DNA of 63,768 bases, the filler included, from Collodictyon triciliatum (Eukaryota): assembly GCA_043381765.1 (NCBI GenBank). It is 9 parts of 9 records of this genome, joined end to end, with 100 filler letters (N's around TTAATTAATTAA, not from the genome) between each part and the next. Parts side by side here need not be neighbours in the genome. Positions count along the whole stretch, not along the records: positions 22,453 to 29,834 come from JBHJMP010003928.1; 8 more parts are not named here. The stretch is one strand, 5' to 3'. The position numbers were made by a program, and so were the translations under genes. Below the pieces are notes generated by a model. The model was not told the origin of the DNA, searched no databases, and worked only from the letters and a program-made list of their open reading frames with translations. The first letter of the stretch is position 1; the number at the start of each line of letters is the position of its first letter. Positions 7,387 through 59,806 of the stretch are shown one piece after another.

Positions 7387-7486
7387 NNNNNNNNNNNNNN
7401 NNNNNNNNNNNNNNNNNNNNNNNNNNNNNNTTAATTAATTAANNNNNNNNNNNNNNNNNNNNNNNNNNNNNNNNNNNNNNNNNNNN
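7387..7486. other. Artificial contig linker (N44-TTAATTAATTAA-N44)
   Basis: Identical 100-nt spacer with stops in all six frames, recurring about every 7.47 kb. Confidence 0.98.
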
Positions 7487-14869: not shown

Positions 14870-14969
14870 NNNNNNNNNNNNNNNNNNNNNNNNNNNNNNN
14901 NNNNNNNNNNNNNTTAATTAATTAANNNNNNNNNNNNNNNNNNNNNNNNNNNNNNNNNNNNNNNNNNNN
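14870..14969. other. Artificial contig linker
   Basis: N44-TTAATTAATTAA-N44. Confidence 0.98.
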
Positions 14970-22352: not shown

Positions 22353-22452
22353 NNNNNNNNNNNNNNNNNNNNNNNNNNNNNNNNNNNNNNNNNNNNTTAA
22401 TTAATTAANNNNNNNNNNNNNNNNNNNNNNNNNNNNNNNNNNNNNNNNNNNN
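22353..22452. other. Artificial contig linker
   Basis: N44-TTAATTAATTAA-N44. Confidence 0.98.
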
Positions 22453-22647
22453 TTCTCCTAGCTCGTTTGATGGAGCTGTGGCTTTTTGGTAAGTTTTTAT
22501 GGTCTGAGTAATCTCTTTGTTCTTTTTTTTAGCTTCTGTTGCTTTTGGCTGGATTTTCGCGAGGTGGGCTTTTTGTTTTTCCGATGCGATGCGTTTAGAC
22601 TTTGGTTTTTTCTCTATGGTATCCATTTCGTTTTCAGAATCGCTCAT
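22453..22647 (-). CDS. Small basic Lys-rich viral-type protein, 3'-truncated
   Basis: MSDSENEMDTIEKKPKSKRIASEKQKAHLAKIQPKATEAKKK resembles the 'KR..SEKQ...L.K' small proteins I recall from PLVs/NCLDVs. Start placed at 22647 rather than 22653 because it fits the shared upstream motif. Confidence 0.6.
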
Positions 22648-22681
22648 ATTCATCCATAGAAAATAATTTCTGAGTAAGACT
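22648..22681. promoter_or_regulatory. Putative bidirectional viral promoter: two back-to-back TCT-N6-GA[A/C]T-ATG motifs
   Basis: Plus strand: aattTCT gagtaa GACT ATG(22682). Minus strand: atttTCT atggat GAAT ATG(22647). The core AGAAA-ATAA-TTTCT (22658-22671) is an inverted repeat. Confidence 0.6.
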
Positions 22682-23446
22682 ATGGATAAAGCGTATTACA
22701 TTCACATATATTCAGCCAACAGATCAAGCGGCAGTATATCAAACTTTGATTTTGCCACGACACAAAACAGATATGTTGCATCCTCAGGTAAAGTTGCACT
22801 TGAAAGTATTCAAATTCCTTATGCCGTACATAATGTTACGAGTGCCAATAATGAATTAGCTTTTCTTTGTAGTGTCAGTGGCAGCCCTGTTTCATACAAT
22901 ATTTCACTTGAGACTGGACTTTTAACAATCCAAGAAATAGTCAGTGACATCCGAACAAAGATTAACGCGGCAACCTTAGGCCAGGGAGCTGCAGCAGAAG
23001 TCACTGTTTCATTTCTGAGCGGCAAGCAAAAGATAGCAATCAAAGCAGCTGGTCCAAATGTTTCATATGAACTGTTTGTAAATTCTAGTACCTGTAGAGA
23101 GCTAATAGGACTGACGGCTAATTTAACATTCAACACTAGTTTTGTTGAGCTGCAGAATATGGTCAATGTCCGTCCGTTTGATTATGTGTATTTAGTCAGC
23201 CCCAATATTCAGTCGTCAAGTTTTGCCAGTAACATAGGCGGCAATGGCATTATCGCAAAGATTCCGCTGAGTGTTGGTTCACGGTACTCGAATTATTACG
23301 AGGTGAATGACAATATCCTAGAGAATCTGATGGACTGCTCGTATATTCCGTTCAGCTGGAATTTCCGGTTGGTCGACAGACTGGGGCGGACAATTAATCA
23401 AATTCAGGACTACAGCTTCACGCTGCGGATTATTCCAGATTTTTAA
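22682..23446 (+). CDS. Minor capsid protein (single jelly-roll penton) of PLV/virophage/Polinton type
   Basis: 254 aa with the characteristic motif order: IYSANRSSGSISNF, VALESIQIPYAVHNVTSANNEL, ISLETG...EIVSDI, ELIGL, YVYLVS, IIAKIP, FRLVDRLGRTIN...DYSFTLRI. Confidence 0.78.
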   Translation: MDKAYYIHIYSANRSSGSISNFDFATTQNRYVASSGKVALESIQIPYAVHNVTSANNELAFLCSVSGSPVSYNISLETGLLTIQEIVSDIRTKINAATLGQGAAAEVTVSFLSGKQKIAIKAAGPNVSYELFVNSSTCRELIGLTANLTFNTSFVELQNMVNVRPFDYVYLVSPNIQSSSFASNIGGNGIIAKIPLSVGSRYSNYYEVNDNILENLMDCSYIPFSWNFRLVDRLGRTINQIQDYSFTLRIIPDF

Positions 23447-23460
23447 ATCTTGCCTAGAAT
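23444..23460 (+). promoter_or_regulatory. Third copy of the TCT-N6-GA[A/C]T-ATG upstream motif
   Basis: taaaTCT tgccta GAAT ATG(23461); TCT again starts exactly 13 nt before the ATG. Confidence 0.6.
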
Positions 23461-25236
23461 ATGGGTTTTTTCATTACAGAAGAAAAGGAACTACCGGAAT
23501 TTTCCAATCAAGACGCAAACAAAATTTTGAAAGTAGATTCAAGTGGGCTTTATTTACAGTGGCTGCAGGAGACGACGGCACCGGCTGAGCTGCCTAGCCA
23601 AGCGGGAAACAATGGCCGACTACTCACTACCAACGGCTCAGTACCATCGTGGACAGATGCGCTATCAGTTAGTACTCTCACTAGTGGAGGAAATATTCAT
23701 TTTTCAAATAATAATAGTCAGTTTTCTCAATTGAGAAGAAATGATAATGTCAATATGATTTTACAAGATGATGGCGTCGGGACCCGGACTATGTCATTTA
23801 ATATTGGAAACCTTAGTAGCACTAGGAGAAGATTGTTTATACAGCAAGGAACATTTACTGTTGAAAATAGCAGATTTCTTGTTTCCGATTCGTCACAAAT
23901 TCACTCAATTGCAGGCATACTAAATCTACCCACAGCTGGCAGTGCATCCGCCCCGACTTTGATGTTTGGAGACAACACAGACACACCAGTTGCGAGTCGA
24001 ACAGGTATTTGGGGCTCAGACAATGTTATTCGTTTTGGAACAGATGGAACGGAAAGAGTTACTATAAGAAATGACGGGCTCACAGTTCCTGATGGCTCTA
24101 CCGCGGCCCCTTCTTATAGTTTCGAAAATTCTACAAATTCTGGTTTAGTGAGAACAGTAGTCGGTACTGATAATGGGATTGGTTTTGTAGCTAATGGAAC
24201 ACAAGTGTGCTCTATAGTAGGTGGTAATATTAGATTGAGCGGAGGTTCGAGTATTCGAAACAACGTATCTAATCCAAGTTCTAATATACAGTTTATTGGA
24301 AGTACAGGAGGCGCAACGGGGTATATACAGTCGACATTTAGTGATTCTAGTACAGGAACCGCAGCAACTTACAGGTTGGGTAATGGCACAAACTGGCCAG
24401 CTACTGAAACGGTTATGAGTAGATTAGTCGGAGGCACTGGAACGAATGAAATATTTGCAACAGAGCACGGGAATACGTATTTTAGATTTTTAGGGGCAAC
24501 AGGTACGGGGGCTACTTTGCCGACACGAGTTCAGAGGGTTGAAATTAATAATTCAGGTATGAGCATAACAGGCAACTTATCAGTTACTGGGACCATTACG
24601 GGAACAATTGAGTTTCCTAGCAACACTATAAACGTTCTAAATGTGCAATTTGGTGGTACGGGAGCAAGCATCACAGGGGCTAATTCCGGTGTAAATTCAT
24701 CGGTTAATATTCAGACTGAAGCACAAAATCGTGTAAATGTAAAATCAAATGATACGGAAATACTTAACAGTTTAAATATCAGTAGAGGAATTATATCACC
24801 TTTTGTAATAATTGACGAACAAACATACACAGTATCAAGAACTACCCCAGCACATGTAATATTAACCAGATCTACTATTTCAGGTGCTCCTAATTCTGAA
24901 TTAACGCTTCCTGCAGCATCTGATGTACCATTAGGATTTGGATTTCGTTTATACATATTTAACTTACCTGGACGTACAATTTTAACAAACAACGCAATTT
25001 TTCAAGCAACACCCGCATCAAACAATCCACTTATTTTTACACCTTCTACAAACATTCGTTATTTTGTGGGTAATGCATACTATGATTTTACATCGAGCAC
25101 AACTCGATATATGGTGTTGGATTTTTACAATATGCGTGAATGGGCACCAAGTAAATCAAGATGGATTATAACTCCAGTAAGTCAATGGATTGAACCATCT
25201 CCATCTACCACTGTATGGCTTGGAAATGACAACTAA
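23461..25236 (+). CDS. Virion fibre / phage tail-fibre-like protein
   Basis: 591 aa, G/S/T/N-rich and beta-prone. Tandem N-terminal motifs ELPEFSNQDANKILKVDSSGLYLQW and ELPSQAGNNGRLLTTNGSVPSW; repeats GSASAPTLMF...TGIW...IRFGTDGTERVTI and GSTAAPSYSF...SGL; C-terminal LTLPAA...G...YIFN. Lies directly downstream of the penton gene. Confidence 0.7.
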   Translation: MGFFITEEKELPEFSNQDANKILKVDSSGLYLQWLQETTAPAELPSQAGNNGRLLTTNGSVPSWTDALSVSTLTSGGNIHFSNNNSQFSQLRRNDNVNMILQDDGVGTRTMSFNIGNLSSTRRRLFIQQGTFTVENSRFLVSDSSQIHSIAGILNLPTAGSASAPTLMFGDNTDTPVASRTGIWGSDNVIRFGTDGTERVTIRNDGLTVPDGSTAAPSYSFENSTNSGLVRTVVGTDNGIGFVANGTQVCSIVGGNIRLSGGSSIRNNVSNPSSNIQFIGSTGGATGYIQSTFSDSSTGTAATYRLGNGTNWPATETVMSRLVGGTGTNEIFATEHGNTYFRFLGATGTGATLPTRVQRVEINNSGMSITGNLSVTGTITGTIEFPSNTINVLNVQFGGTGASITGANSGVNSSVNIQTEAQNRVNVKSNDTEILNSLNISRGIISPFVIIDEQTYTVSRTTPAHVILTRSTISGAPNSELTLPAASDVPLGFGFRLYIFNLPGRTILTNNAIFQATPASNNPLIFTPSTNIRYFVGNAYYDFTSSTTRYMVLDFYNMREWAPSKSRWIITPVSQWIEPSPSTTVWLGNDN

Positions 25237-25265
25237 ACAATTTTTATTATAATAACAATTGTTTA
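25234..25265. terminator. 32-bp near-perfect palindrome spanning the stop codons of two convergent ORFs (bidirectional hairpin terminator / polyadenylation signal)
   Basis: TAAACAATTTTTATTATAATAACAATTGTTTA: 15 of 16 symmetric positions are complementary. It starts at the fibre TAA and ends at the large-ORF TAA. Confidence 0.7.
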
Positions 25266-28200
25266 ATAAATAGCCTGTGAAAGATTCTTCATTGGTGTCC
25301 CGAATATTCGCTCGGTAATTGGCCCGTAAGATTTGCGGCCAAATGCACCAGAGGATATAAAGTATTGAGCGTCCCTTGCCGAACCGAATGCACGTTTCTG
25401 GCCGCCGCCGTGTACGACGTAATTGAGTCCCTCGCGTCTTATAGAATATGCAGATTGGCCCGGAATAATAATGGTACCGAGGTCAGAATTGACGACTCTA
25501 CCCAAGTTTTGCTGAGGTAGAAATGCGACATTTCTTAGTTTCTGGTCCGTGGGGTCTCCGTATTGTGGACTGTATTTCAGAGGCCAATAACCTGCAGCTC
25601 GCGCTTGTTTCAGTTGGGCGTCTAAATCATTTCTAGTGTCTTCATCAATAGTATTGTTATAATAAAATAAAACAAGTTCTCTAGCTGCCTCGGGTTCTAT
25701 GGACAAATCCACCCATTGAATACCTAATTCATTCATTTTTGTTTCAAATGTTTCTATATCGTTTAATACAGAACCAGTAAAATTAATAGGTAGTCCAGTA
25801 TTTAATTGGCCGTTTCGATTTCTCAAAGATATTTGTTTTGAAACTTCTTTTGCGAACTTCGTCTGATTTCCGAAATTGCGTTCAATGACTGGGCGCATAA
25901 AATTATTATTAAAAATGGGATTGAAGTTGAAGCCTCCAAAACCTCCGAAGCCGCCTCCGCCTCCGCCTCCGCCTCCGCCAGGTGGTCCAGGTGGTCCAGG
26001 TGGGCCTCCGCCAAGGCTTGGAGCTCTTCTAGGTACCCGGACTGGGGTACCAATACCGACATTTCCAGTTCCAAGGCTTACACCTCGTCGTGGAGCAGGA
26101 CGTGGGCTATCGATTGGATTAAACATTGTATTGGGATTCATATTATTACCACCGAAAATATTTTGACCAATAACATTTGTTGCAGCCTGGAAAATATTAG
26201 CACCCACATTAAAAACGTTGCCTGCAAGTGCCCTGACTGCTGCCATTCTACCAGGAATAACAGGGGAGGGAGCAATTTGTTGAACTGGACTTTGAGCAGG
26301 CACCATCGCACGTGGTGGGGACCCAGTAGGACTATCAGGTAATATCATAATATTTGGATTGGGTTGTGACGCAGCTGGCAGTGCTGGAAAATCTTGAAAC
26401 TGCCAGGGACCTAGTGCTATTGGACTTGGAATTCCTTGAGATAAAGACCTAGGTGTACTAACACGTCTTCTTGTTAGAGAACTTGGACGAGAACTAGGTT
26501 GAGACCTCACTATCATTTGTGAAGGCGTATCGGGTATATCATCTTCAGGGTCGTTAGTTGGAATTGCAGGGTACGCCGCATTATAATAAAATGTGGCTGT
26601 ATCAGCAATTTGGTCTCGTTGATATTTTAATTGCTGAGCAAGATTTTGTAAATTTTCAATTGTTTGCGCTTGTTCTATAACAATAGGATTTTCTAAATTT
26701 AATAATGCATTTAAATTATCGACTTGGTTTCTTAATTCTTGTATTTCAAACTCTTGTGTTTCAGGTGCTTGCAATAACAGTTGCAAATTATGAAGGTGAG
26801 TTTCCAATTCCTCTATCTTACGTAATTTTATTTCTTCAAACATTAATTTTCTTTTATTATTAAATTCACTTTGATATTTAATAAGATTTTCTCTTCGTCT
26901 TTCTAATTCTTGAGTGTTTAAACTGGTTCGTCTTGATGCAGGTGTGCCTGGAGGTGGTTTTGGTGTTCTTGGAGTCCGTGTTGTCTGTGACAATTGAGAT
27001 AATTGAATGGATTCTGTATTAAATCCTACTGAATAATTTCCAGGTTTAATTCTATTCAATGCATTGCGCTGTTCTTCCATTCTAGCCTGCTCATTAGCCA
27101 TTTGCACACCAAGTTCTTCAAGCTTTTTTTTATACATTTCTTTGTCTTGTAAGAGTCCTGTTGCTAGGTCAGACGCAATATTAACTGTATTCTGTAGCTC
27201 AGAAATATACTCATTTTGTTCACCCAATGCAATATTTAAAGTATCGATTTGGTTATATGCATTATCTAATTTATTTTGGACCAACTCTAGATGTTCGGCT
27301 AATTTTTTTAATAATTCATCTGCTGCTTGATTAGTAGGTGTAATATCTATTTCGGTAATTACATCTTGGGTTGTTAAATTTGTTTGTACATTGGTTAGTT
27401 TATCCTGTTGATTTTGTTCCCTAATTCTATTAATTTTCTCGCTCATTTGTGCAAGTTTTTCAGTTATATTTCCGATACTTACCGTTCCGCTTGTGTCAGG
27501 TATAGACGACCTGTTTGGTGTATTATCAAAAGGCGATGTAAATAATTGTCTTTTAGGAACTGATGCTGGAGGCAACATATCGCCTGTTACTTTACTACCG
27601 AATCCAGTGCGTTGTGTGTATGTTGGTGTTCCTTGAATACTCGGAGCTTGTGTAAAACTCTGATTGGCTAAAAATGACATTCCACTTATATTGGATTCGT
27701 TTAATACAGGATTACTAATAGTAGATTCATTAGCCATATTTTCGGTCTGGGCTTGTGTAAATGAAATACCTGATTGATTCAGTTGTTGTAAACTCTGTTC
27801 TGCAAAACTTTGAGCAGGAGTTAGAATTCGCGAGCCTATATATGTAAGTGTTGATTGGTCTGGGTCAAATACTGATGCGCTACCCAAAACTTTTGGTCCA
27901 AATAAAATACTAGCACTTCTCTGTGCATTTTGTACATAATTTGCTTGGTTAAAAATTTGCGAGCGTTCAAAAGTAGTAAACAAATCATCCATAGACTGCT
28001 CTAGCATATTACGGGAACTACTGGCATTTAATTGCACCATCGAAACAATATTTTTTGCGAGTAAGTTACTAAAATTTATATTATCAAATTCATTAAGTCT
28101 ATCGTCAAGTGAATCATTGACAATTAATTCAATATCTTGTTGTTCACGAGCTATTTGCGCTTTGTATTCGTCATTTAACATATCTGCTACGGTCAATGCT

Positions 28201-29834
28201 CTTATTTCCGTTTGAACAACTTGCGCTCTGGCTTGTTTTACATCAAATATATCCTGTCTGAATTCACTTATTTCTCTTACTACTTCTTGGTCAGATTGAG
28301 GTAATGAATGAAAGAATTTTTCATACCCAGCATCTGATTGTTGGTCAGAATTTTTTATTATAAAATTTTTTATACTCATTTGCATTGTTTTTGCTACTTG
28401 GTCTGCTACTTCCAAAAGTATCCCTTGATTTGTTGCTTGTACTAAGTCTCTTATAATTATTTGTTCTTCTTCTTGATTAATAACTGGAATTAATTGTGAA
28501 ACGATGGCATCATCGACTCTAGTAACAAGTGCTTGATTTTGAACAACTGTTTCGTCAGTTTCATCCTGCGGAATTTTTTGTAAATATCTTTTTTGATATT
28601 CTTGGAGAATTTCTTTTTGTAATTGCAGCCGTCTTACTTCCTCACCTTTTTTTAATTTTTCTGCCAAGGCCTCTTCAGCCTGTCTCTTTTTTTCAAGAGC
28701 TTCTTGTCTTTTCTTTTCTTTTCTTTCTTCAATCTCTTTTAATTGCTTTTCTCTTTTTGCATTAAATAATTCAGCCCGGCTTCGACGCTCCTCTGCTGCT
28801 TGCTCTTGTTCTGCTTTTTTCTCAAGTTCTGCAATAAATCTATAGTATGCGATGTTCCAACATATATTATATAAAATTTCATCTTCATCTAAATCTTCGT
28901 ATGGTTGGCCTATTTGAAAAGCATACAAATATTCTCTTATTTCTTCTCCAAATTCATCGTCTAAATATTGCATAAATTCAAATTCCTTATCATCACCAAA
29001 TGTCTTGGGTATGTTTTCTTTATAACTAAATCCCCTGTGCTTAAACCATTCTTTCAGTGCAAGATTCATAGCGGTATAAATAACTGTGTTAATAGGACCG
29101 CCACGAGAATCTCTTTTCTGCAAATAAGGTATATCCAGAGGGGACTTTTTTTTTCCTATTTCACTTTTAATTTTCAATGTTAATTCTGTCCAGTGTTCTT
29201 GTCCTTCTTCACTTTCCATTACTTCATTAAATTGTGCAAAATACGCTTCCAGTCTACCAAATGTTGTATCCAGGTCAAAACTTTCTTCTTGTTCTTGTTC
29301 TTGTTCTTGTTCTTGTTCTTGTTCTTGTTCTTCTTCTTCTTCTTCAACTAATACTGGTGAACTTTTTTGTTGAAGTTTAATTTTAGTAATTTCTTCTATT
29401 GATTGTCTACGGGGGCTATTAAACACTGGATCCATCACTTCTTGTTTAGTAGGTTGAGTTTGACTTTGGCTTGCACTTGGAGCTTCTTCGTCATCATCTT
29501 CTTCTTGTTCTTCTTCTACATCTTCAACATCTGCTGAAGTTTTATTGCGTAGTATGTCACTAAAATTTTCAAACTCACTTAATTCTTTTCTTAATAAATT
29601 TACGCCAACTTTTGTATAAAGGTCGACAATATAAGATATTCTAAATCTTTCATCATGAAATTTTAATTCTTTTCTTTCCATAGCCCTAACAAATGTTAAA
29701 GTTTTTTTAGTATCTACCTTTTTTATATCGTATGCACGGGCTATGTCAAATAATTTTTTATAAATATTTATATGTTCATCAAAATCTAAATTTTGCAAAT
29801 GTGCAGCATAAGCCTCTTTAGTGTATTTTACCAA
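25263..29834 (-). CDS. Large (>1523 aa) intronless hypothetical protein, 5'-truncated; acidic, coiled-coil, S/T/P-rich and Gly/Pro-rich segments
   Basis: Uninterrupted 4.57-kb ORF that begins at the contig edge (TTG, not a real start). Contains an (EQ)n tract, E/K/Q coiled coils and PPGPPGPPGGGGGGGGG. No catalytic motif recognised. Confidence 0.85.
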   Translation of the reverse strand: MVKYTKEAYAAHLQNLDFDEHINIYKKLFDIARAYDIKKVDTKKTLTFVRAMERKELKFHDERFRISYIVDLYTKVGVNLLRKELSEFENFSDILRNKTSADVEDVEEEQEEDDDEEAPSASQSQTQPTKQEVMDPVFNSPRRQSIEEITKIKLQQKSSPVLVEEEEEEQEQEQEQEQEQEQEESFDLDTTFGRLEAYFAQFNEVMESEEGQEHWTELTLKIKSEIGKKKSPLDIPYLQKRDSRGGPINTVIYTAMNLALKEWFKHRGFSYKENIPKTFGDDKEFEFMQYLDDEFGEEIREYLYAFQIGQPYEDLDEDEILYNICWNIAYYRFIAELEKKAEQEQAAEERRSRAELFNAKREKQLKEIEERKEKKRQEALEKKRQAEEALAEKLKKGEEVRRLQLQKEILQEYQKRYLQKIPQDETDETVVQNQALVTRVDDAIVSQLIPVINQEEEQIIIRDLVQATNQGILLEVADQVAKTMQMSIKNFIIKNSDQQSDAGYEKFFHSLPQSDQEVVREISEFRQDIFDVKQARAQVVQTEIRALTVADMLNDEYKAQIAREQQDIELIVNDSLDDRLNEFDNINFSNLLAKNIVSMVQLNASSSRNMLEQSMDDLFTTFERSQIFNQANYVQNAQRSASILFGPKVLGSASVFDPDQSTLTYIGSRILTPAQSFAEQSLQQLNQSGISFTQAQTENMANESTISNPVLNESNISGMSFLANQSFTQAPSIQGTPTYTQRTGFGSKVTGDMLPPASVPKRQLFTSPFDNTPNRSSIPDTSGTVSIGNITEKLAQMSEKINRIREQNQQDKLTNVQTNLTTQDVITEIDITPTNQAADELLKKLAEHLELVQNKLDNAYNQIDTLNIALGEQNEYISELQNTVNIASDLATGLLQDKEMYKKKLEELGVQMANEQARMEEQRNALNRIKPGNYSVGFNTESIQLSQLSQTTRTPRTPKPPPGTPASRRTSLNTQELERRRENLIKYQSEFNNKRKLMFEEIKLRKIEELETHLHNLQLLLQAPETQEFEIQELRNQVDNLNALLNLENPIVIEQAQTIENLQNLAQQLKYQRDQIADTATFYYNAAYPAIPTNDPEDDIPDTPSQMIVRSQPSSRPSSLTRRRVSTPRSLSQGIPSPIALGPWQFQDFPALPAASQPNPNIMILPDSPTGSPPRAMVPAQSPVQQIAPSPVIPGRMAAVRALAGNVFNVGANIFQAATNVIGQNIFGGNNMNPNTMFNPIDSPRPAPRRGVSLGTGNVGIGTPVRVPRRAPSLGGGPPGPPGPPGGGGGGGGGGFGGFGGFNFNPIFNNNFMRPVIERNFGNQTKFAKEVSKQISLRNRNGQLNTGLPINFTGSVLNDIETFETKMNELGIQWVDLSIEPEAARELVLFYYNNTIDEDTRNDLDAQLKQARAAGYWPLKYSPQYGDPTDQKLRNVAFLPQQNLGRVVNSDLGTIIIPGQSAYSIRREGLNYVVHGGGQKRAFGSARDAQYFISSGAFGRKSYGPITERIFGTPMKNLSQAIY

Positions 29835-29934
29835 NNNNNNNNNNNNNNNNNNNNNNNNNNNNNNNNNNNNNNNNNNNNTTAATTAATTAANNNNNNNNNN
29901 NNNNNNNNNNNNNNNNNNNNNNNNNNNNNNNNNN
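29835..29934. other. Artificial contig linker
   Basis: N44-TTAATTAATTAA-N44. Confidence 0.98.
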
Positions 29935-31743: not shown

Positions 31744-33022
31744 ATTTTTCTCTGTTTATTCTTCCAATCACCTGAGGGACATGAAACATTAACTTAAAGA
31801 TCTGATTTGTTGCATACTTACCCAGGTGAGAACAAGAGCTCTTTTACTCCATCTGCTGATGACCTGCATGCAAATATTGCCCTGGACTACACTCCCATCT
31901 CAGTGACAGGCGAAAGAGCACAAACATTCCGCATCCATGTCGATTCTGCCAACCTTGCCATCGGTACAGCCAAGTCGATATGATATTGATGATCTAGAGC
32001 ATTATTTTTGGCCACCATTTATTTTAATCATCATGTTATTCTTGCTGTCCGCAGACCCGTATGTTGCCTCTACTGTGGAAGGAGTTGTCAAGACCGGTCA
32101 GGGTATCTTCGAGGTCATTCTATATCCAAATATTGCATTTCCTTCATGCTATCTCGTACCCACAGTCGCGTACATCATGCGATTAAGTTATCATGAATTT
32201 TTTTCTATGAATGAATTAATTAGTCAAAAGATTTAAAACCTCGCCATCTCAGATATGCTGCGTTGATGACATTTCTCGATTCTTAGGTTGGATATATCCC
32301 TGACTCCAGAAAGGCTGATAAGAAGCCTAACGCACCCTCTTCGGCCGACGCAGACGCACCCATTCCTTACTTTATCGATGCGAGTAACAGCAAGGTCACC
32401 ATCAAACGGCAGGACGGGCAAGTCCTCGCCAAAGCCTCGTACAGCGTAGATTTTGGCGTAAGTTGCATGCTTTTGCTCACAAACGCACCTTGCCTACGCA
32501 AAGTTGCACGTGATTTTCCTCCTGGGTTTTGTACGGATAATCGACTTATGCGTATGTTTCACCACTATATGTAGATCTATCTTTCTCATAATGACAATCG
32601 TGCGTTCCGCCTCGTCCTGAGCAAGACTGAGGGATACGACTTTGTTGCAGCCGACCACAAGTACAGAGATATCATCGCATTGTCTCTGCGCTCTTTCCTG
32701 AGTATTACTGTGGTATGTCAAGCTTCTGCACAGCTCCCTTTTTTGTTCTATTATCTTTTCGTTTCGTTCCTTTTTCTTTTTCTTTTTCTTTTTTTCTTTT
32801 TTTCTTTTTTTCTTTTTTTCTTTTTTTCTTTTTTTCTTTTTCTTTTGTTTTCTTTTGCTTTCTTTTGCTTTCTTTTCTCAACCGCCATGCTGCCGAAGAA
32901 ATATTTACTCACATCCACCATAAATCCAGCTACTCAAGGGCAAGATTGGAGTCCATCGTGTCCAATCACTCTCTGAGCTGAGAAACAAGCAGAACGAAGC
33001 AAAGAAGAAGCTTGGCCAGTAA
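30067..33022 (+). CDS. 5'-truncated multi-exon gene with three AIR9(A9)-like Ig domains and a C-terminal PH-like domain (AIR9/SCAB-like cytoskeletal protein)
   Basis: Repeats ISGILIEGNSLEV...YQW|Y...PIPGANLPSFYPTNREAGQYIGVTV, ITGVPKEGSVLKV...IQW|F...PILDATKDTYIPTRYEAGSPLVV and YFGPSEGNSIYQW...PIPG|ENKSSFTPSADDLHANIALDYTP. Then DPYVASTVEGVVKTGQGIFEV and FVAADHKYRDIIALSLRSF. Inferred last exon ends ...KKKLGQ*. Confidence 0.65.
31665..31743. repeat. (GTTGGT)n-(GTT)n intronic microsatellite
   Basis: Direct tandem repeat. Confidence 0.9.
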
Positions 33023-33650
33023 AGCTCTGCCACAAGCAAGAGACACGCCAGCGAGTCAGTTCGCACGAGTCTGAACGCATCCGCCCGCGTCTCGCGAACA
33101 AACACCAAGCTTTCCCCATCTCTCTTGCTGACAAACAAGGCCTCCTATCTACTCACCCTTGCTCTGGCAGACTCTCTTTTTCTTTTCTCAACTCACCACA
33201 CGCACCGTCCCTCCCGTCCTGCCTGGGCACTATTTACTTACCTTCGCTCGCTCCTCCCCGTTCTACTCCATAAAAACAAGGACAAAATGAGATGCGTCTC
33301 ATGCCACAAAAGACACCCGGAGGCCGTGTCCCACCGACTGACTGGATGAAGCCTGGGATTCATCGTCCCTGGTTCATCTTTGTGTGCAGATTCATATGTT
33401 GGTCGGGTGGGTCTGTGGCAGGATGTGGCGAAATGTGGCGAAATGTTTATCATTCCACATATGTCTTTTCTGTTTTCGGTGGTATATTCCCATTGGCATT
33501 GCAACCCGTGCTGTTCGCCGAATCGGTTGCCAACAACGGGCAGCCTGTTTTGGATGTGGGATCGGTTGTTGAGGAGCACAATGGCAGGTTCGTTATCGCT
33601 CTCATCCGCTTTACTTGTGGCGACCTATGCTTTTTCCTCTTTTTTTTGTC

Positions 33651-33910
33651 TTGTTTGTTTGTTTGTTTGTTTGTTTGTTTGTTTGTTTGTTTGTTTGTTT
33701 GTTTGTTTGTTTGTTTGTTTGTTTGTTTGTTTGTTTATTTGTTTGTTTGTTTGTTTGTTTGTTTGTTTGTTTGTTTGTTTGTTTGTTTGTTTGTTTGTTT
33801 GTTTGTTTGTTTGTTTGTTTTTTGCTTTTTTTTTGTTTGTTTTGTGTTTTGTTTGTTTTGTGTTTTGTTTGTTTTGTGTTTTGTTTTGTGTTTTGTTTTG
33901 TTTTGTTTTT
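33651..33910. repeat. (GTTT)n microsatellite, degenerate at the 3' end
   Basis: Direct tandem repeat; it produces the FVCL and TNKQ ORFs. Confidence 0.95.
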
Positions 33911-34159
33911 CAAGATCCAGTTAAGATTGATTACGACCACCTAAGCAAACTTAAAAGCTGATGTATCCCAAATACAATGAGATTATTACTTATTTTATTT
34001 TTTACATCATTTTGAGAAATATTTTATTATGTTTTCTCTATGACATCATGACTTAAAATGTTTTGTTTATGGGTCATTAATATAGAATGTGTTTTAAAAA
34101 GCCCGTATGTAAATTAGAGTGCAAACAAAGAGTGAACTGACTGGCTCAAAGAGAAGAAA

Positions 34160-36336: not shown

Positions 36337-37305
36337 CTACTGTGAAGGGGCTAGCACCGGAAAGAAATCAGTGATAGCGAGTTGGTCAGGTGGGTGTCCC
36401 AACTGGTTGATTGGTTGCATGGGTAACAGTGGTTGGATATGCTGTGGGAGATATCGCACGACACATTCCCTCATCTCTCTTCGCTTGCTGTCAGAGTAGC
36501 AAAGAATGCGGGCGTGTTTCAGCAGGCTGTTCAGGAAGCTGTATTGCACGAGGCTCTCAAGCCTGGATACATTGATTTCTCGTTCGGGTGAATCATTGGA
36601 GCGAGAGAATGCACGCACACTCCATAAGGCCCACAGCATATGTCCCCTTGTGACTGTCCAGAGTATTCTAGAGTCGTGGGTCATTTGGTATTGTGGGCCA
36701 AACAGGATGTCAGACGCGCTGAGTCGATTGGGAGCATAATCAAGCTCAGAGAGCATCTTGTGGGCGGATTCTGTCACTTTTTGAGCAAGAGAGCACTTCG
36801 CAAATGTGTGTTCGATAGAGTCATCTCCACTATGGCACATGGTGCAGTCTGGAGAGGTCGTTGCTGCATGGACTACACGCACATCTATCCACAGATCTCT
36901 GTTTAATGTATTGAGCAGTAGGGCGCGGTGTTTTGGGAGTAGCTAAGATATGTGGGCTTGCTGCCAGTTTTGTACTTTTGATTTTCGTAGTGATGAAGTT
37001 GCGGCAGATGTCTTCCAGCTCCTTCAGCCTTTGGGGATTCAGCAAAGTGCTTTTCATGTTGTAGAGAAGGGTCGACAGCATCACTTGGTTCCAAAACCTT
37101 ACTTTCCCCACGTCCGAGAGATGAAAGTTGCTCCACACTGATATTTTCGACTTGATGTCTTCAACCAGGCTTGTCCATTTGTTATCCGATTGTGGACCGA
37201 ATATGATACCAAGATACTTGAGTGGATGTGACGGTGGCTTCCACACAATGTTTCCTGGAAACATCAGTCCATCCTGAAACCCAAAAAGAATTCCATCTGT
37301 CTTGT
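36337..37305 (-). mobile_element. 3' remnant of an L1/Tx1-clade non-LTR retrotransposon ORF2 (RT thumb + C-terminal zinc finger), disrupted
   Basis: LKYLGIIF...WTSLVEDIKSKISVWSNFHLSDVGKVRFWNQVMLSTLLY is the post-RT signature. After a frame break near 36900 come CTMCHSGDDSIEHTFAKC (CCHC zf-RVT) and LWALWSVR. The usual spacer between these regions appears to be deleted. Confidence 0.85.
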
Positions 37306-37405
37306 NNNNNNNNNNNNNNNNNNNNNNNNNNNNNNNNNNNNNNNNNNNNTTAATTAATTAANNNNNNNNNNNNNNNNNNNNNNNNNNNNNNNNNNNNNNN
37401 NNNNN
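37306..37405. other. Artificial contig linker
   Basis: N44-TTAATTAATTAA-N44. Confidence 0.98.
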
Positions 37406-37993: not shown

Positions 37994-40900
37994 TTGACTC
38001 CGAATGACTGAAAACAAATGCGAGATGCGAAATATTCGTCTCTAGAGATTAATTCAAACTTCGTATGTTGTGGGTGGCTTTAAATCTTGCTCCTCTGCCT
38101 TAACGGGTCTAATAACATTTCCTACTTCAATTTCTCCAATTCTTTCTTTCAAGCTCTGGTTGAATTAAAATGAAAGATAAGTACTTAATGCACAAAATTT
38201 GATGGTCAACTGGAATAAGTTTGGCGAGTCTAATTCACGTACCCAGATTACTGTCAAGTTTACAAACTTATACTTACCTGGTAAGTTTGTTCAGATATTA
38301 GAATCTGCCCACCGAGTGCCTTTCGACTTAATCTAACAGCTGTAGAAAGTGGCTACTCAAAATTTCGAAATGTTTAGAATACTGACTGATAGAAAAGATA
38401 ATTATTACTATTGAAAACGGGCTCATTGATATTTTTAGTGTACATATTACCTTTCCAGTATATTGAGTATGTTCGTTTACTGCATCTTTTTTTGCAGTGC
38501 AGGTTCCAGTATTCAATCCCTACATAATCGAATATATTTCACATGACTAAATAGCTGGTTCGCGTGTCATCGTGCTCACTCAAGTAAATAAAAAAAGTAT
38601 GTTTAAAAACCACAATTTTAATCCTGTAAAGTGGAGACGAAAAATGTAACATGAAAGAAAATGGATTAATTTTACCATTTGAACACGAAGCCCTTTCATT
38701 GTGCCTTCGTATATTTCTTTTCCTAACGGGTGAGACAGCAGCGATTCAGGCCATATATATTCTTGTAACTCGTACTGAACCGCTACACAAAACCTAGAAT
38801 AATAGAATTAGAAAAAAAATTACAATGTCCAACTTTGATATATGATTTCCAGATTACTTGACAGCATCGTAGGCCTCTTGAAAGACAATCACAAAGTTCT
38901 CCCCATCATTCTGGCTAATATACCCGTGGTTTTTTCGTGCAATCTATGATCATGTTTTTCATTAACTGCATAAAGAAACGCAATTATATCCGGCTGGTTC
39001 CTATTCTTCTTATTCTTGGAAAAAAATTGATCATATTAGATTTTAAAAAAGGAAAGCATAACCATATACCAACCTGTCTCACAATACTATTATGATTTAG
39101 GACAGCATCACACATAGCATCAGGAATTTCGTCCCACAAAGTTTCTGACCCCGCTACTCGAGTGCATACTACAGTTACTTCGCCATCTGGAGGTTTATCT
39201 GGAGAACTTATCATTCTCTGCATAATTTTAAAATATTTGGATCATTAATAAAGTTGGTATAAGATATATAAATGTGTCCACATATTTGTTCTTGTCATCA
39301 AGGAAAACATGAGCTATATTTCTGAAATAATTTCGATACCATGAATGATGATGAAGACGTTCTCGAAGCCTCTGTAATGACCTTAAATAGAATAGATCCT
39401 GGTTTAGTAATATCTAAATTATTTTTTTCAATGCAGTAGATGATTTTTATAGAGGATTAATTTTGATAAATTCCTTAATGTATAACTTACTGATATGCTT
39501 TTCGCTAGTTGTTGGAACGTAGGTCTCTCCAGAGGGTCCTGAGCCCAAGCTGATGTCATAATAGACTTTACATCCTCTGGTAGATTTTCCTCTAATTTTG
39601 GTCTCAATCTCGACATCAAAACCTGCGTTGTCACAGCCAATACGCTTTCCACATCATAATACGGGTCTTTTCTTGACATGATTTCCCAAGCGATAATACC
39701 AAAACTATAAACATCAGCAGCAACTTTGTATTCATCTCCTCCGATAACTTCTGGGGCGAGCCAAAGAAATGAGCCGACCCTTTCCTCTTGTTCATTCGAA
39801 CCTTGCATGATTGTCAACCCAAAGTCACTGTGTCGTAATATCATATTTATTAGTTCATTTTGTATCTTGTAAAATTCATGAATAAGCAATATTGGTGGGA
39901 ATTACCTGACTTTCAGACGAAGCCGGTCATCAACCTATTCATTTAATTATGAACAAAAAAGAAACAAAAGAAACAAAAGAAACAAAAGAAACAAAAGAAA
40001 CAAAAGAAAAAGAAAAAGAAAAAGAAAAAGAAAAAGAGAAAGAGAAAGAGAAAGAAACACAAGAAACAAAAAAGAAACACAAGAAACAAAAGAAACAAAA
40101 GAAACAAAAGAAACAAAAAAGAAAAAAGAAAGAGCGGTAAGCAGAAAATCTTCAACTTATAATGATCAATTTAGTTACGTACCAAAACATTCAAGCTTTT
40201 CAAGTCTCGGTGCAGTATCGGCGGATTCGACATATGCAAATACTGCATTCCTGTCCAATATTCGTTTTTCATATATGAAATATCGATGATTTCATTTGTA
40301 ATAAAAACGTCTTAAAATAAAATAAGAAACCTTTGCAAATATCCGCCATGAACTGGACTTTTTGGTAATGAGGAATATGTTTGTTTTCATCGTGGAGAAC
40401 GTCATACAAACTTCCGAACTGCATGAATTCACAAACAAGACAAAGATTTCCCCCTTCAAACACAGCGCCCATGTAAAGCACGATATTTGGGTGGCGTAGT
40501 TCTCTGGTTCAATTCGAAATTGATGAATGGGTTGAGAAAATGTGTGTAGTTCATAATAAAGGATAAATGTTTGAAGCTAACGTTCCTATTCTCATTTTTG
40601 GATTAAAACATTACACCATGACTGATATTTCTGCTTTGAATGATTCTATCGACTCTTTGCTTATGCTTTTTTCATGTATTTTCTTAATCGCAACTTCTGC
40701 TCCTCTCCATTCTCCCTTGTAAACCTGAAGTATAATTTTAGGTTGACGAGTTGAATGAACATTGCTAAATCTCAAAAAGAAAACTTAAAGGGTAAGTGAT
40801 AGCAAACATCTACCATGATATCAATGTTTTTAAAATCAATATAATATTATTTACTTGATGCAATATTCATTTTAGACGTGAAAAAAATGAAAATGAAATC

Positions 40901-44773: not shown

Positions 44774-44873
44774 NNNNNNNNNNNNNNNNNNNNNNNNNNN
44801 NNNNNNNNNNNNNNNNNTTAATTAATTAANNNNNNNNNNNNNNNNNNNNNNNNNNNNNNNNNNNNNNNNNNNN
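44774..44873. other. Artificial contig linker
   Basis: N44-TTAATTAATTAA-N44. Confidence 0.98.
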
Positions 44874-52238: not shown

Positions 52239-52338
52239 NNNNNNNNNNNNNNNNNNNNNNNNNNNNNNNNNNNNNNNNNNNNTTAATTAATTAANNNNNN
52301 NNNNNNNNNNNNNNNNNNNNNNNNNNNNNNNNNNNNNN
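52239..52338. other. Artificial contig linker
   Basis: N44-TTAATTAATTAA-N44. Confidence 0.98.
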
Positions 52339-57400: not shown

Positions 57401-59706
57401 AGTTTTATTATCATTTTAATGTAATATGAGTACAAAACTAACTTAATAAAACAGGAACCGTTCCAAGCTTCAGTGGAATTCCAAGTGTTGAAAGGATTTC
57501 TCTTTACAGCAATCAATTAACTGGCAAGTTATACTATTATTACATGTATTATTGATGAAAACTAACTTTATATTACAGGGACCGTTCCAAACTTCAGTGG
57601 AATTCCAAATGTTGAAAGGATTGATATCGAAAACAATCAACTGGATGGTAGGTTTTATATAATAATTTTTTGAATTATTGATGAAAAACTGACTTCATAC
57701 TACAGGGACCGTTCCAAACTTTAACGGAATTCCAAGTGTTAGAAGAATTTATCTTGACAGAAACGGATTGAATGGTAATTTCTACATATTTTACCTTTCT
57801 ATTTCTTTGATTTATATATTTCCTGTAATATTAATGAGCAATTTTAGGCGCAATTCCAAACTTTTCAAATATGCGTAAACTGGAGATTTTTTCTTTTTAT
57901 GACAATCAACTGGAGGGAGAGATTCCAGATTTCAAAGATTGCATAAACATCAAGGAAATAGTGTTGTTCCGCAATAAGTTTTCAAGCACATTACCGATGT
58001 TCAATCTGAATAACCTGACAAGACTGGATGTGAGCGAAAACCAAATTATTGGCTCTATCCCAGAAAATTGGATATTGCCTTCAATTAAATACATCGAATT
58101 GTCTTGGAACAAAATGAACGGCACAGTCCCAACCTATTTTCAGGGATTATTAGAACTGAAATCACTCGTTTTGTCTCACAATAAATTCTCTGGAAGCATG
58201 CCTGATTATTTTTGGAATCTGCCTAATATAGTCACTATTGATTTAAGAAACAACTCATTTTCAGGAAATGTTGCTGATTTTATCTCACCAGCTTCAGGCA
58301 ATTACGATTATTTTTATGAAAACCTTTTGCTTGATGACAACCAATTGAATGGAGCATTGAATTATAGACTTTTGGACTTTGTTATTAACATAAAAATTTT
58401 AAGCCTTAAGAATAACAACATCTCCAAGCTTGATTACCTTACAACTCTATTGAGATGGACTTCCCTTGACCTCACTGGAAATCCGATTGTTGGAAGCATT
58501 CCCGAATCATACATCGGGTTTTCAAAGCTTGAGTATCTGGGATTAAATAAAACATCGATGAATCACGGAACAGCTAATTTTCTTCCTGATTTCATGAATT
58601 TCACAACATCTTTCAATCTCCAAGATGAAACAAAACGCTACCTTTGTCCTTCTATTATTTCGAAATCTGGTCTGATTGAGTTAGAGGTTGACTTGAATCC
58701 AGAATACTATGACTTTGAATTTTGTAAATGCTTACCTGGTTATTTCGGCTTTGGAAATAATTGCGTTCGATGCCCAAGAGGATGTGATTGCCTTGATGGA
58801 ACGTCCTTGAAATTCTGTCATGCTTCACCAAGCATCACCTCTGTGAAATCAATACTGCCATGTCCACGTCGTGAGTCATGTGATATGTCGATTCCAGAGA
58901 AAATTTCGAATTCAAATACGACGGTCGAAATCATAGACCTGTGTCAAGAGGGCTATGAAGGTAATGCCTGCTCAAAATGTCAGAATGGATACGGAAATCA
59001 AGGAAGGTCGTGTTTGAAATGCGATAAAGGAACGATTTATTTAACCCTGATTCTTGCTTCGATTGGATTCTTTATGTTCATTTTCTATCTGTATTTCACA
59101 GAGACATCAAAATCAGGTAAATGTTACTAAATTATTTCACTTCATTCTTCTTATATTAATCAGAATATTTTTGTAGCGAAACTCAGGATAATAATGTTCC
59201 ACATGCAAACACTGTCGATTGTGTCCAGTGGAATCGTTCTTTCAGAAGATGCAAACAGCTTTATCGAAGTTTCATCGTCGATTGGTTCAATCCAATTTCC
59301 CAACCTTTCCTGTGTCCTTGGAGTAGACGATGTGTTTGCTTCTCTGATGTTCAGTTTTGTAAGAATACCAATCTTTATCGTCGTTGGCTCAGTCACGTAC
59401 TATTTCGGATATGGACACAAGCAGAACAAAGTAAGGATGAAAAAATACATTCAGTTATGAATATCCATATTGTTTCAGCTTCATCTTTAGTAGTACTAAA
59501 TTAATTATTTTGGCAGGCTGTTTTCATCGCATTGAATCTTCTGTTTTTTATATACTACTCGGTTGCAAGAGAGGTGTTTGGTGTTTTTGGATGCACCGTT
59601 TATGATGAAGGTGTGAATAAATGGTATCTGAATTTCAAGCCCTGGATTCAATGCAGCCCAGCCTCGGATGAATATCAAAAACTGCTCGCAATATCTGTCC
59701 CAGTTT
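54500..59706 (+). CDS. LRR receptor-like protein: signal peptide, LRRNT cap, about 30 plant-type (GxIP) LRRs, Cys-rich region and multipass membrane domain; 3'-truncated, with two apparent +1 frameshifts
   Basis: MLLVAFVAIVFIGSSAS signal; cap LVQLYGLLGGNNWFRNTGW...ICDWYGISC; LRRs of the LxLxxNxLxGTxPxF type; CQEGYEGNACSKCQNGY...CLKC; TM region KLRIIMFHMQTLS...YYSVAREVFGVFGC...YLNFKPWIQC, as in protist GPCR-related multipass receptors. The frame breaks near 55235 and 55598. Confidence 0.85.
55555..57847 (+). repeat. Tandem array of 18 exon+intron units (about 126-bp period), each exon encoding one 23-aa LRR
   Basis: 69-nt phase-1/phase-1 exons start at 55692, 55816, 55944, 56075, 56201, 56326, 56450, 56574, 56700, 56823, 56950, 57077, 57203, 57329, 57455, 57579 and 57706; a 70-nt exon starts at 55555. 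Introns are mostly about 55-60 nt, with GTAAGTT donors, AACTAAC-like branch sites and AG acceptors. Confidence 0.95.
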
Positions 59707-59806
59707 NNNNNNNNNNNNNNNNNNNNNNNNNNNNNNNNNNNNNNNNNNNNTTAATTAATTAANNNNNNNNNNNNNNNNNNNNNNNNNNNNNNNNNNNNNN
59801 NNNNNN
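59707..59806. other. Artificial contig linker
   Basis: N44-TTAATTAATTAA-N44. Confidence 0.98.

Follow-up and report, generated by a model that had tools for sequence, protein, structure and literature searches.

The Collodictyon triciliatum genome assembly GCA_043381765.1 contains a viral contig (JBHJMP010003928.1) on which every visible start codon is preceded by the same position-fixed motif, TCT-N6-GA[A/C]T-ATG. We give about an even chance to a reading in which this motif is what can be seen of a compact promoter or initiator, specific to the virus, that would serve the structural genes of a small capsid-bearing virus. The stretch of DNA that was analysed (the window, 63,768 nt) is not one locus; it comprises nine contigs of 3962–7386 nt each, joined by N44-TTAATTAATTAA-N44 linkers. 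The contig at 22453–29834 is of viral origin, and its genes and motif copies are listed here (ORF, open reading frame).

22453..29834, both strands: viral contig, 7382 nt, GC 0.376, at least 4 genes, both ends inside genes
22453..22647, minus strand: gene for a small basic protein, 5' part only, as the contig ends within it; conserved start ATG at 22647
22682..23446, plus strand: penton gene, 254 aa, with profile and fold matches
23461..25236, plus strand: gene for a fibre-like protein, 591 aa
25263..29834, minus strand: large ORF, more than 1523 aa, convergent to the fibre-like gene, low-complexity and coiled-coil-rich; start off the contig
22645..22660, minus strand: motif copy TCT-N6-GAAT-ATG before the small gene (TCT at 22660, ATG at 22647)
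22669..22684, plus strand: motif copy TCT-N6-GACT-ATG before the penton gene (TCT at 22669, ATG at 22682)
23448..23463, plus strand: motif copy TCT-N6-GAAT-ATG before the fibre-like gene, in a 14-nt spacer (TCT at 23448, ATG at 23461)

A sequence-only reading of this DNA had reported TCT at −13 before three visible starts, and all of the strings were found as described, with ATGs at 22682, 23461 and 22647. GAMT (M being A or C) lies at −4 in 3/3 cases, and the four bases 5' of TCT are A or T in 3/3. The motif is therefore present at 3/3 visible starts on a contig with at least 4 genes, the start of the fourth gene lying off the contig. With both strands of the window scanned, the pattern TCTN6GAMTATG matches three times, each time at one of these starts, compared with 0.28 matches expected and 0/100 shuffles reaching 3, a figure that is biased, the scored sites having also supplied the pattern. 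When the three upstream 30-mers are aligned on their start codons, 10/30 columns are identical, whereas random triples of ATG-upstream sequences average 2.3 (100,000 triples) and reach at least 10 in about 2 per 10,000 cases. No further ATG in the window, on either strand, carries TCTN6GAMT upstream. Nor did the motif prove equally common before host start codons, the comparison by which it was to be judged: TCT stands at −13 in 0/24 ATG-started ORFs of at least 100 aa on the other contigs, most of these ORFs being unverified as genes or first exons.

The motif is part of a symmetric arrangement, with the following elements.

22648..22681, both strands: divergent gap between the small gene and the penton gene, 34 nt; near-palindrome with 11/17 pairs complementary, centred midway between the two ATGs (17+17 nt)
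22658..22671, both strands: AGA-W8-TCT element, 14 nt, whose ends are the TCT cores of both divergent copies
23437..23450, both strands: AGA-W8-TCT element forming a perfect 6+2+6 palindrome, which overlaps the end of the penton gene (last codons and stop)

The two motif copies in the divergent gap are two faces of a single near-palindrome. The sequence-only reading had described them as two copies set back to back in a 34-nt gap; the gap and both copies are as described, but the copies are not independent of each other. Palindromy of 11/17 is reached by 126/62,670 of the 34-mers in the window and by 8/7,348 in the viral contig, which puts the gap in the top 0.1–0.2%. The shared sequence also extends further upstream than first described, with AGA at −24 to −22. 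The complete AGA-W8-TCT element has just 2 matches in the window, one per locus, compared with 0.57 expected; 9/100 shuffles reach 2.

A second palindrome marks the other kind of gene boundary on this contig, between the convergent fibre-like gene and large ORF.

25234..25265, both strands: 32-nt palindrome spanning exactly from the stop codon of the fibre-like gene to that of the large ORF (repeat I1, 94% complementary)

In this palindrome 15/16 pairs are complementary, and it is the sole one among the 62,688 32-mers of the window to reach 15. RNA from either strand is predicted to form a hairpin (−6.8 and −8.7 kcal/mol; z −1.6 and −2.3). Mimiviridae follow a hairpin rule in which polyadenylation occurs at hairpin-forming palindromes that end transcripts (PMC4402537). 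A hairpin-forming palindrome directly at the stop codon, as expected of a terminator of this type, is what we see here, in the single instance visible. Judged by its sequence and position, 25234–25265 is likely a bidirectional 3'-end signal. Because it suggests that symmetric signals are placed at gene boundaries in this genome, it makes it easier to credit the 5' palindrome with a function.

The register of the minus-strand copy depends on which ATG starts the small gene. This gene encodes a basic, Lys-rich protein, which has eight relatives (clusters) of 108–117 aa. In 6/8 the protein begins at the Met encoded by the ATG at 22647, while 2/8 have two extra residues before that Met, as in the window, and the Met itself is invariant across all eight. 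We therefore take 22647 as the conserved start, in agreement with the sequence-only reading, which had chosen this ATG. Two further ATGs lie upstream, at 22653 (in frame) and 22657 (out of frame); when either was tried as the anchor of the motif, the number of identical columns dropped to 3, and both were rejected. Separately, a perfect 8-bp inverted repeat (22652–22659 and 22680–22687, part of repeat I11), centred 5 nt off the main palindrome, pairs the out-of-frame upstream ATG with the penton start codon. The longest contigs of the small-gene clusters also match those of penton relatives in length (8403 nt for P0131 and P0006, 2296 nt for P0128 and P0007). Judging from these lengths, the results suggest that the divergent synteny of the two genes is conserved.

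The 254-aa protein encoded at 22682–23446 was confirmed as a single-jelly-roll vertex (penton) protein by its profile and its predicted fold, so the label assigned from the sequence was correct. On its own, the protein had no significant Pfam, PHROGs or NCBIfam family. Its relatives comprise 10 close clusters and 88 representatives at E up to 0.001, and a profile was built from 61. Against the PDB, this 61-member profile matched PBCV-1 P1 (8h2i_bG; 2.3e-19 and 2e-8) and the EhV-201 penton (2.5e-6), and 25/61 of the family members match DUF5901. The AlphaFold model is confident, with a predicted local distance difference test score (pLDDT) of 89.7. Searched against the PDB, it matched the mavirus penton (6g42_C, 8.6e-11), Sputnik (3j26_N, 2.4e-9), the adenovirus penton base and PBCV-1 P1. 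Against BFVD, it matched proteins of Tetraselmis viridis virus S1, Pyramimonas orientalis virus, CroV, mavirus, adomaviruses and adintoviruses, with the Tetraselmis viridis virus S1 protein ranked 2nd and the mavirus protein ranked 23rd at 8% identity. A tblastn search of the penton against phage records gave no match, and a scan of the genome contigs with the penton alignment confirmed 0/41 pattern matches.

If the motif is a promoter, then its core would be the 14-bp AT-rich element bounded by AGA and TCT, followed by 6 nt, GA[A/C]T and the ATG. A transcription factor or polymerase would bind this symmetric element, and RNA synthesis would begin within ~10 nt before the ATG, giving almost leaderless mRNAs; a start so close would also bypass the two upstream ATGs of the small gene. 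Between the divergent genes, one palindrome could serve both directions, and such a single palindrome acting both ways would account for the exact 17+17-nt symmetry of the gap. At the penton–fibre junction, the element would overlap the end of the upstream gene, and the stop-to-stop palindrome would be the matching bidirectional 3'-end signal of the convergent genes. The intergenic spacers are 34 nt (small gene/penton) and 14 nt (penton/fibre-like gene), which leave no other room, so a promoter must sit right at the start codon. Candidate readers of such signals are the virus's own machinery, that of a co-infecting giant virus, or that of the host. Under this promoter reading, the virus itself is taken to be related to polinton-like viruses and giant viruses.

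Several results weigh against a promoter. Besides the bias in the enrichment count, there are only two independent loci rather than three, because the back-to-back copies overlap as reverse complements. In the unbiased test, the sequence upstream of the fibre-like gene agrees at 10/19 positions where the other two concur, and this is modest: 60/2475 ATGs in the window and 6/208 in the viral contig (~2.4–2.9%) score as well. Without the ATG, WWWWTCTN6GAMT is not enriched in the window (6 matches compared with 4.18 expected, with 20/100 shuffles reaching 6), and 3 of the 6 matches fall away from the three starts. The core WWWTCT is not enriched either, with 85 in the contig, or 5.76 per kb compared with 5.58 per kb in the window. 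Coding can account for the AGA and W8 of the fibre site, which lie inside the Pro-Asp-Phe-stop codons of the penton; among relatives there are pentons that end in -PEE or -PE instead of -PDF. In addition, GAMT is not strictly conserved: 2/8 small-gene relatives begin with M-D-M (as predicted by gene callers), which requires G at −3.

Much of this also speaks for chance combined with coding constraint, in which a small AT-rich sample yields alignable sequences, one pair of them trivially related by reverse-complement overlap. The pattern was recognized post hoc at effectively two loci, the fibre test reaches only ~0.025, the AGA-W8 of the fibre site is coding sequence, two AGA-W8-TCT matches arise in 9/100 shuffles, and the core is common everywhere. 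We nonetheless consider this explanation quite unlikely, as the gap is among the most palindromic 34-mers, with its centre exactly midway between two conserved starts, a third start shows the same register, and the stronger stop-to-stop palindrome points to symmetric signals at gene boundaries in this genome. Highly improbable, in our judgement, is that the palindromes are sites for a symmetric DNA-binding regulator, or 3'-end RNA hairpins of the upstream gene, instead of promoters. Both AGA-W8-TCT elements are palindromic, 23437–23450 overlaps the stop codon of the penton gene, as a 3'-end signal would be expected to, and the adjoining small gene encodes a basic, Lys-rich protein. However, no gene ends inside the divergent gap, and a hairpin with an AU-rich stem of 6 bp and a loop of 2 nt is not credible. 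An RNA hairpin at the penton–fibre junction was rejected: the fold of 23425–23465 is no better than that of shuffled sequences (z −0.22, with 71/200 shuffles folding equally well).

The remaining explanations concern who reads the signal. A promoter of the CroV/mavirus late type, read by giant-virus machinery, would make the element a virophage-like parasite of an Imitervirales virus, which we regard as unlikely. In its favour are the AT-rich stretch and TCT shortly before start codons, the very short spacers, the structural genes, for which the late class would be expected, and a palindromic 3' signal resembling the mimivirid hairpin rule (PMC4402537). The contigs of relatives, up to 16.9–24.9 kb, are also in the size range of virophages and polinton-like viruses, and promoter sharing is known for mavirus with CroV and for Sputnik with mimivirus. 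Against it, TCTA occurs in just 1/3 sites, 0/14 matches to WWTCTAWW in the contig precede a visible start, the flank 3' of TCT is not AT-rich, and the early motif AAAATTGA has 0 matches in the contig. The window holds no giant-virus contig for comparison, the mavirus penton is less similar in fold to the present penton than are proteins of polinton-like and giant viruses (BFVD ranks 23 and 2), and virophage hallmark genes are not visible on this 4-gene, 7.4-kb fragment. We consider it very unlikely that the signal is of host type, either an RNA polymerase II initiator of a protist whose leaders are very short or a translation-start context (GAAT-ATG). Either would suit a motif that keeps a fixed distance to the ATG and has GAMT abutting it, and the other contigs of the window are eukaryotic. 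However, among the other-contig ORFs described above (most of them unverified as genes or first exons) none has TCT at −13, the motif precedes no other ATG in the window, and a start context leaves the palindrome unexplained. The sequence-only reading had proposed an element-specific promoter, possibly read by giant-virus machinery. The first part is borne out to the extent that the contig is viral, the motif is tied to start codons and the spacers are short; for a giant-virus reader, we found nothing. The virophage-like lifestyle that was said to follow is possible but not implied. The 2nd BFVD match of the penton is from Tetraselmis viridis virus S1, a polinton-like virus described as needing no giant virus (PMC11502894).

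The other genes of the contig are less well characterized. For the 591-aa protein, 25 relatives (clusters) were found, with a conserved N-terminus and core and variable C-terminal modules; among these relatives there are two different N-termini and swapped C-terminal modules. It shows phage-tail-fibre-like features in the Atlas, which serve as a lead only. No Pfam, PHROGs or NCBIfam family was found for it, its profile gave 0 matches in the PDB, and its model is poor (pLDDT 45.6). The earlier label of fibre is only plausible. Comparing the fibre alignment with the genome contigs identified one locus (L001, 5951–10951) with a weak match to the N-terminal motif, 32% over residues 11–68. This match is a repeat within a 1666-aa surface or tail-fibre-like protein of a Prolixibacteraceae metagenome-assembled genome, and it is uninformative on the start-codon motif. 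The large ORF has acidic runs, coiled-coil-like stretches and a Pro/Gly tract; it had no Pfam, PHROGs or NCBIfam family, its PDB matches were insignificant, and its C-terminal domain had no usable Atlas match. We considered the ATG at 29681 as its start and rejected it, as the 51 in-frame codons upstream contain no stop, compared with 7 and 7 in the other frames, and the motif is absent there. Because the frame stays open up to the contig end, the start of this gene lies off the contig. Relatives are found on contigs of up to 16.9 (P0001), 17.2 (P0099), 17.2 (P0103) and 24.9 kb (P0113), and these contigs, our sole basis for an estimate, suggest a genome of ~17–25 kb. With more than 1523 aa, the convergent ORF is large for a genome that might be no bigger than ~17 kb.

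Because both ends of the viral contig cut genes, it has no host flank, and integration is without support. Likewise, since the contigs are merely joined by linkers, the "host" sequence beside it is not physically linked to it. The linkers, and the segments that give the other contigs their eukaryotic content, are as follows.

7387–7486, 14870–14969, 22353–22452, 29835–29934, 37306–37405, 44774–44873, 52239–52338 and 59707–59806: linkers
36337–37264: reverse-transcriptase zinc-binding fragment
39428–39889: protein-kinase exon
57871–59130: leucine-rich-repeat ORF

A neighbouring eukaryotic contig also has microsatellite-like repeats at 33600–33950 and 32715–32981, translating as (CLFV)n and Lys/Glu-rich runs; these are ordinary low-complexity DNA.

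Start-proximal promoter motifs are the main clue, from sequence alone, that ties small viruses to the machinery that transcribes them, and virophages and polinton-like viruses have already been matched with giant viruses in this way. With a symmetric motif defined, the helper virus or host of an uncharacterized clade could be searched for, here one represented in public metagenomes by 10 penton and 25 fibre clusters, and the motif would also offer a small testable case of a viral promoter acting in both directions. The two loci amount to a lead and not a result. In a more far-reaching version, which we hold to be distinctly unlikely, the contig would belong to an undescribed clade of capsid-bearing viruses (~17 kb) with palindromic gene boundaries that are read by a co-infecting giant virus, making it a new virophage-like lineage. 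AGA-W8-TCT would then fire both ways and the stop-to-stop palindrome would end transcripts both ways; if so, the clade could be matched to its helper by the motif.

One of the closest known systems is the late promoter of CroV, shared by mavirus and type 4 EMALEs. That mavirus genes carry the AT-flanked TCTA late-promoter motif of CroV, as the sequence-only reading stated, is correct (PMC8547959, PMC5294985, PMC13196603, bioRxiv 10.1101/068312). As in these systems, a TCT core with an AT-rich 5' flank lies a few nucleotides before the starts of structural genes in a compact viral genome. However, the proposed likeness does not hold in detail: the bases after TCT are G, T and A at the present sites, which makes TCTA in 1/3, the WWTCTAWW matches lie elsewhere than before starts, and G or C occurs in the 3' flank at 3/3. 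The present motif further differs in its additional AGA (8 nt upstream), in GAMT at −4 and in keeping strictly to −13, and no helper virus is known for the present virus. The mimivirid early promoter AAAATTGA is similarly start-proximal and shared by a small and a giant virus; it is used by the polinton-like virus PgVV/Gezel-14T, which encodes phage-fibre-like proteins (bioRxiv 10.1101/2022.07.28.501842). In contrast, this sequence is absent from our contig, and 7 matches to WWWWWTGWWWWW are all inside coding sequence, with none before a start.

The poxvirus late promoter, as described in PMC5294985, consists of an AT-rich core, a 5–7 bp spacer and a TAAAT(G) initiator overlapping the ATG. The sequence differs from ours, 0/9 TAAATG matches are at visible starts and there is no evidence of relatedness, but the layout is alike in having a bipartite core, a ~6-nt spacer and an element abutting the ATG, and the present leaders would be very short. 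At the 3' side, the Mimiviridae hairpin rule resembles what we see at 25234–25265, an AT-rich palindrome in the 3' intergenic region of convergent genes, while the present palindrome differs in running exactly from stop codon to stop codon. A search of the literature by words and not by motif, supplements aside, found no description of the present motif. Several reports describe start-proximal promoter motifs as common to virophages, polinton-like viruses and giant viruses (PMC8547959, PMC5294985, PMC5636890, PMC11502894, bioRxiv 10.1101/2022.07.28.501842). Promoter motifs close to the start codon are thus already known in such viruses; the symmetric form found here is unusual and, as a promoter, would be new.

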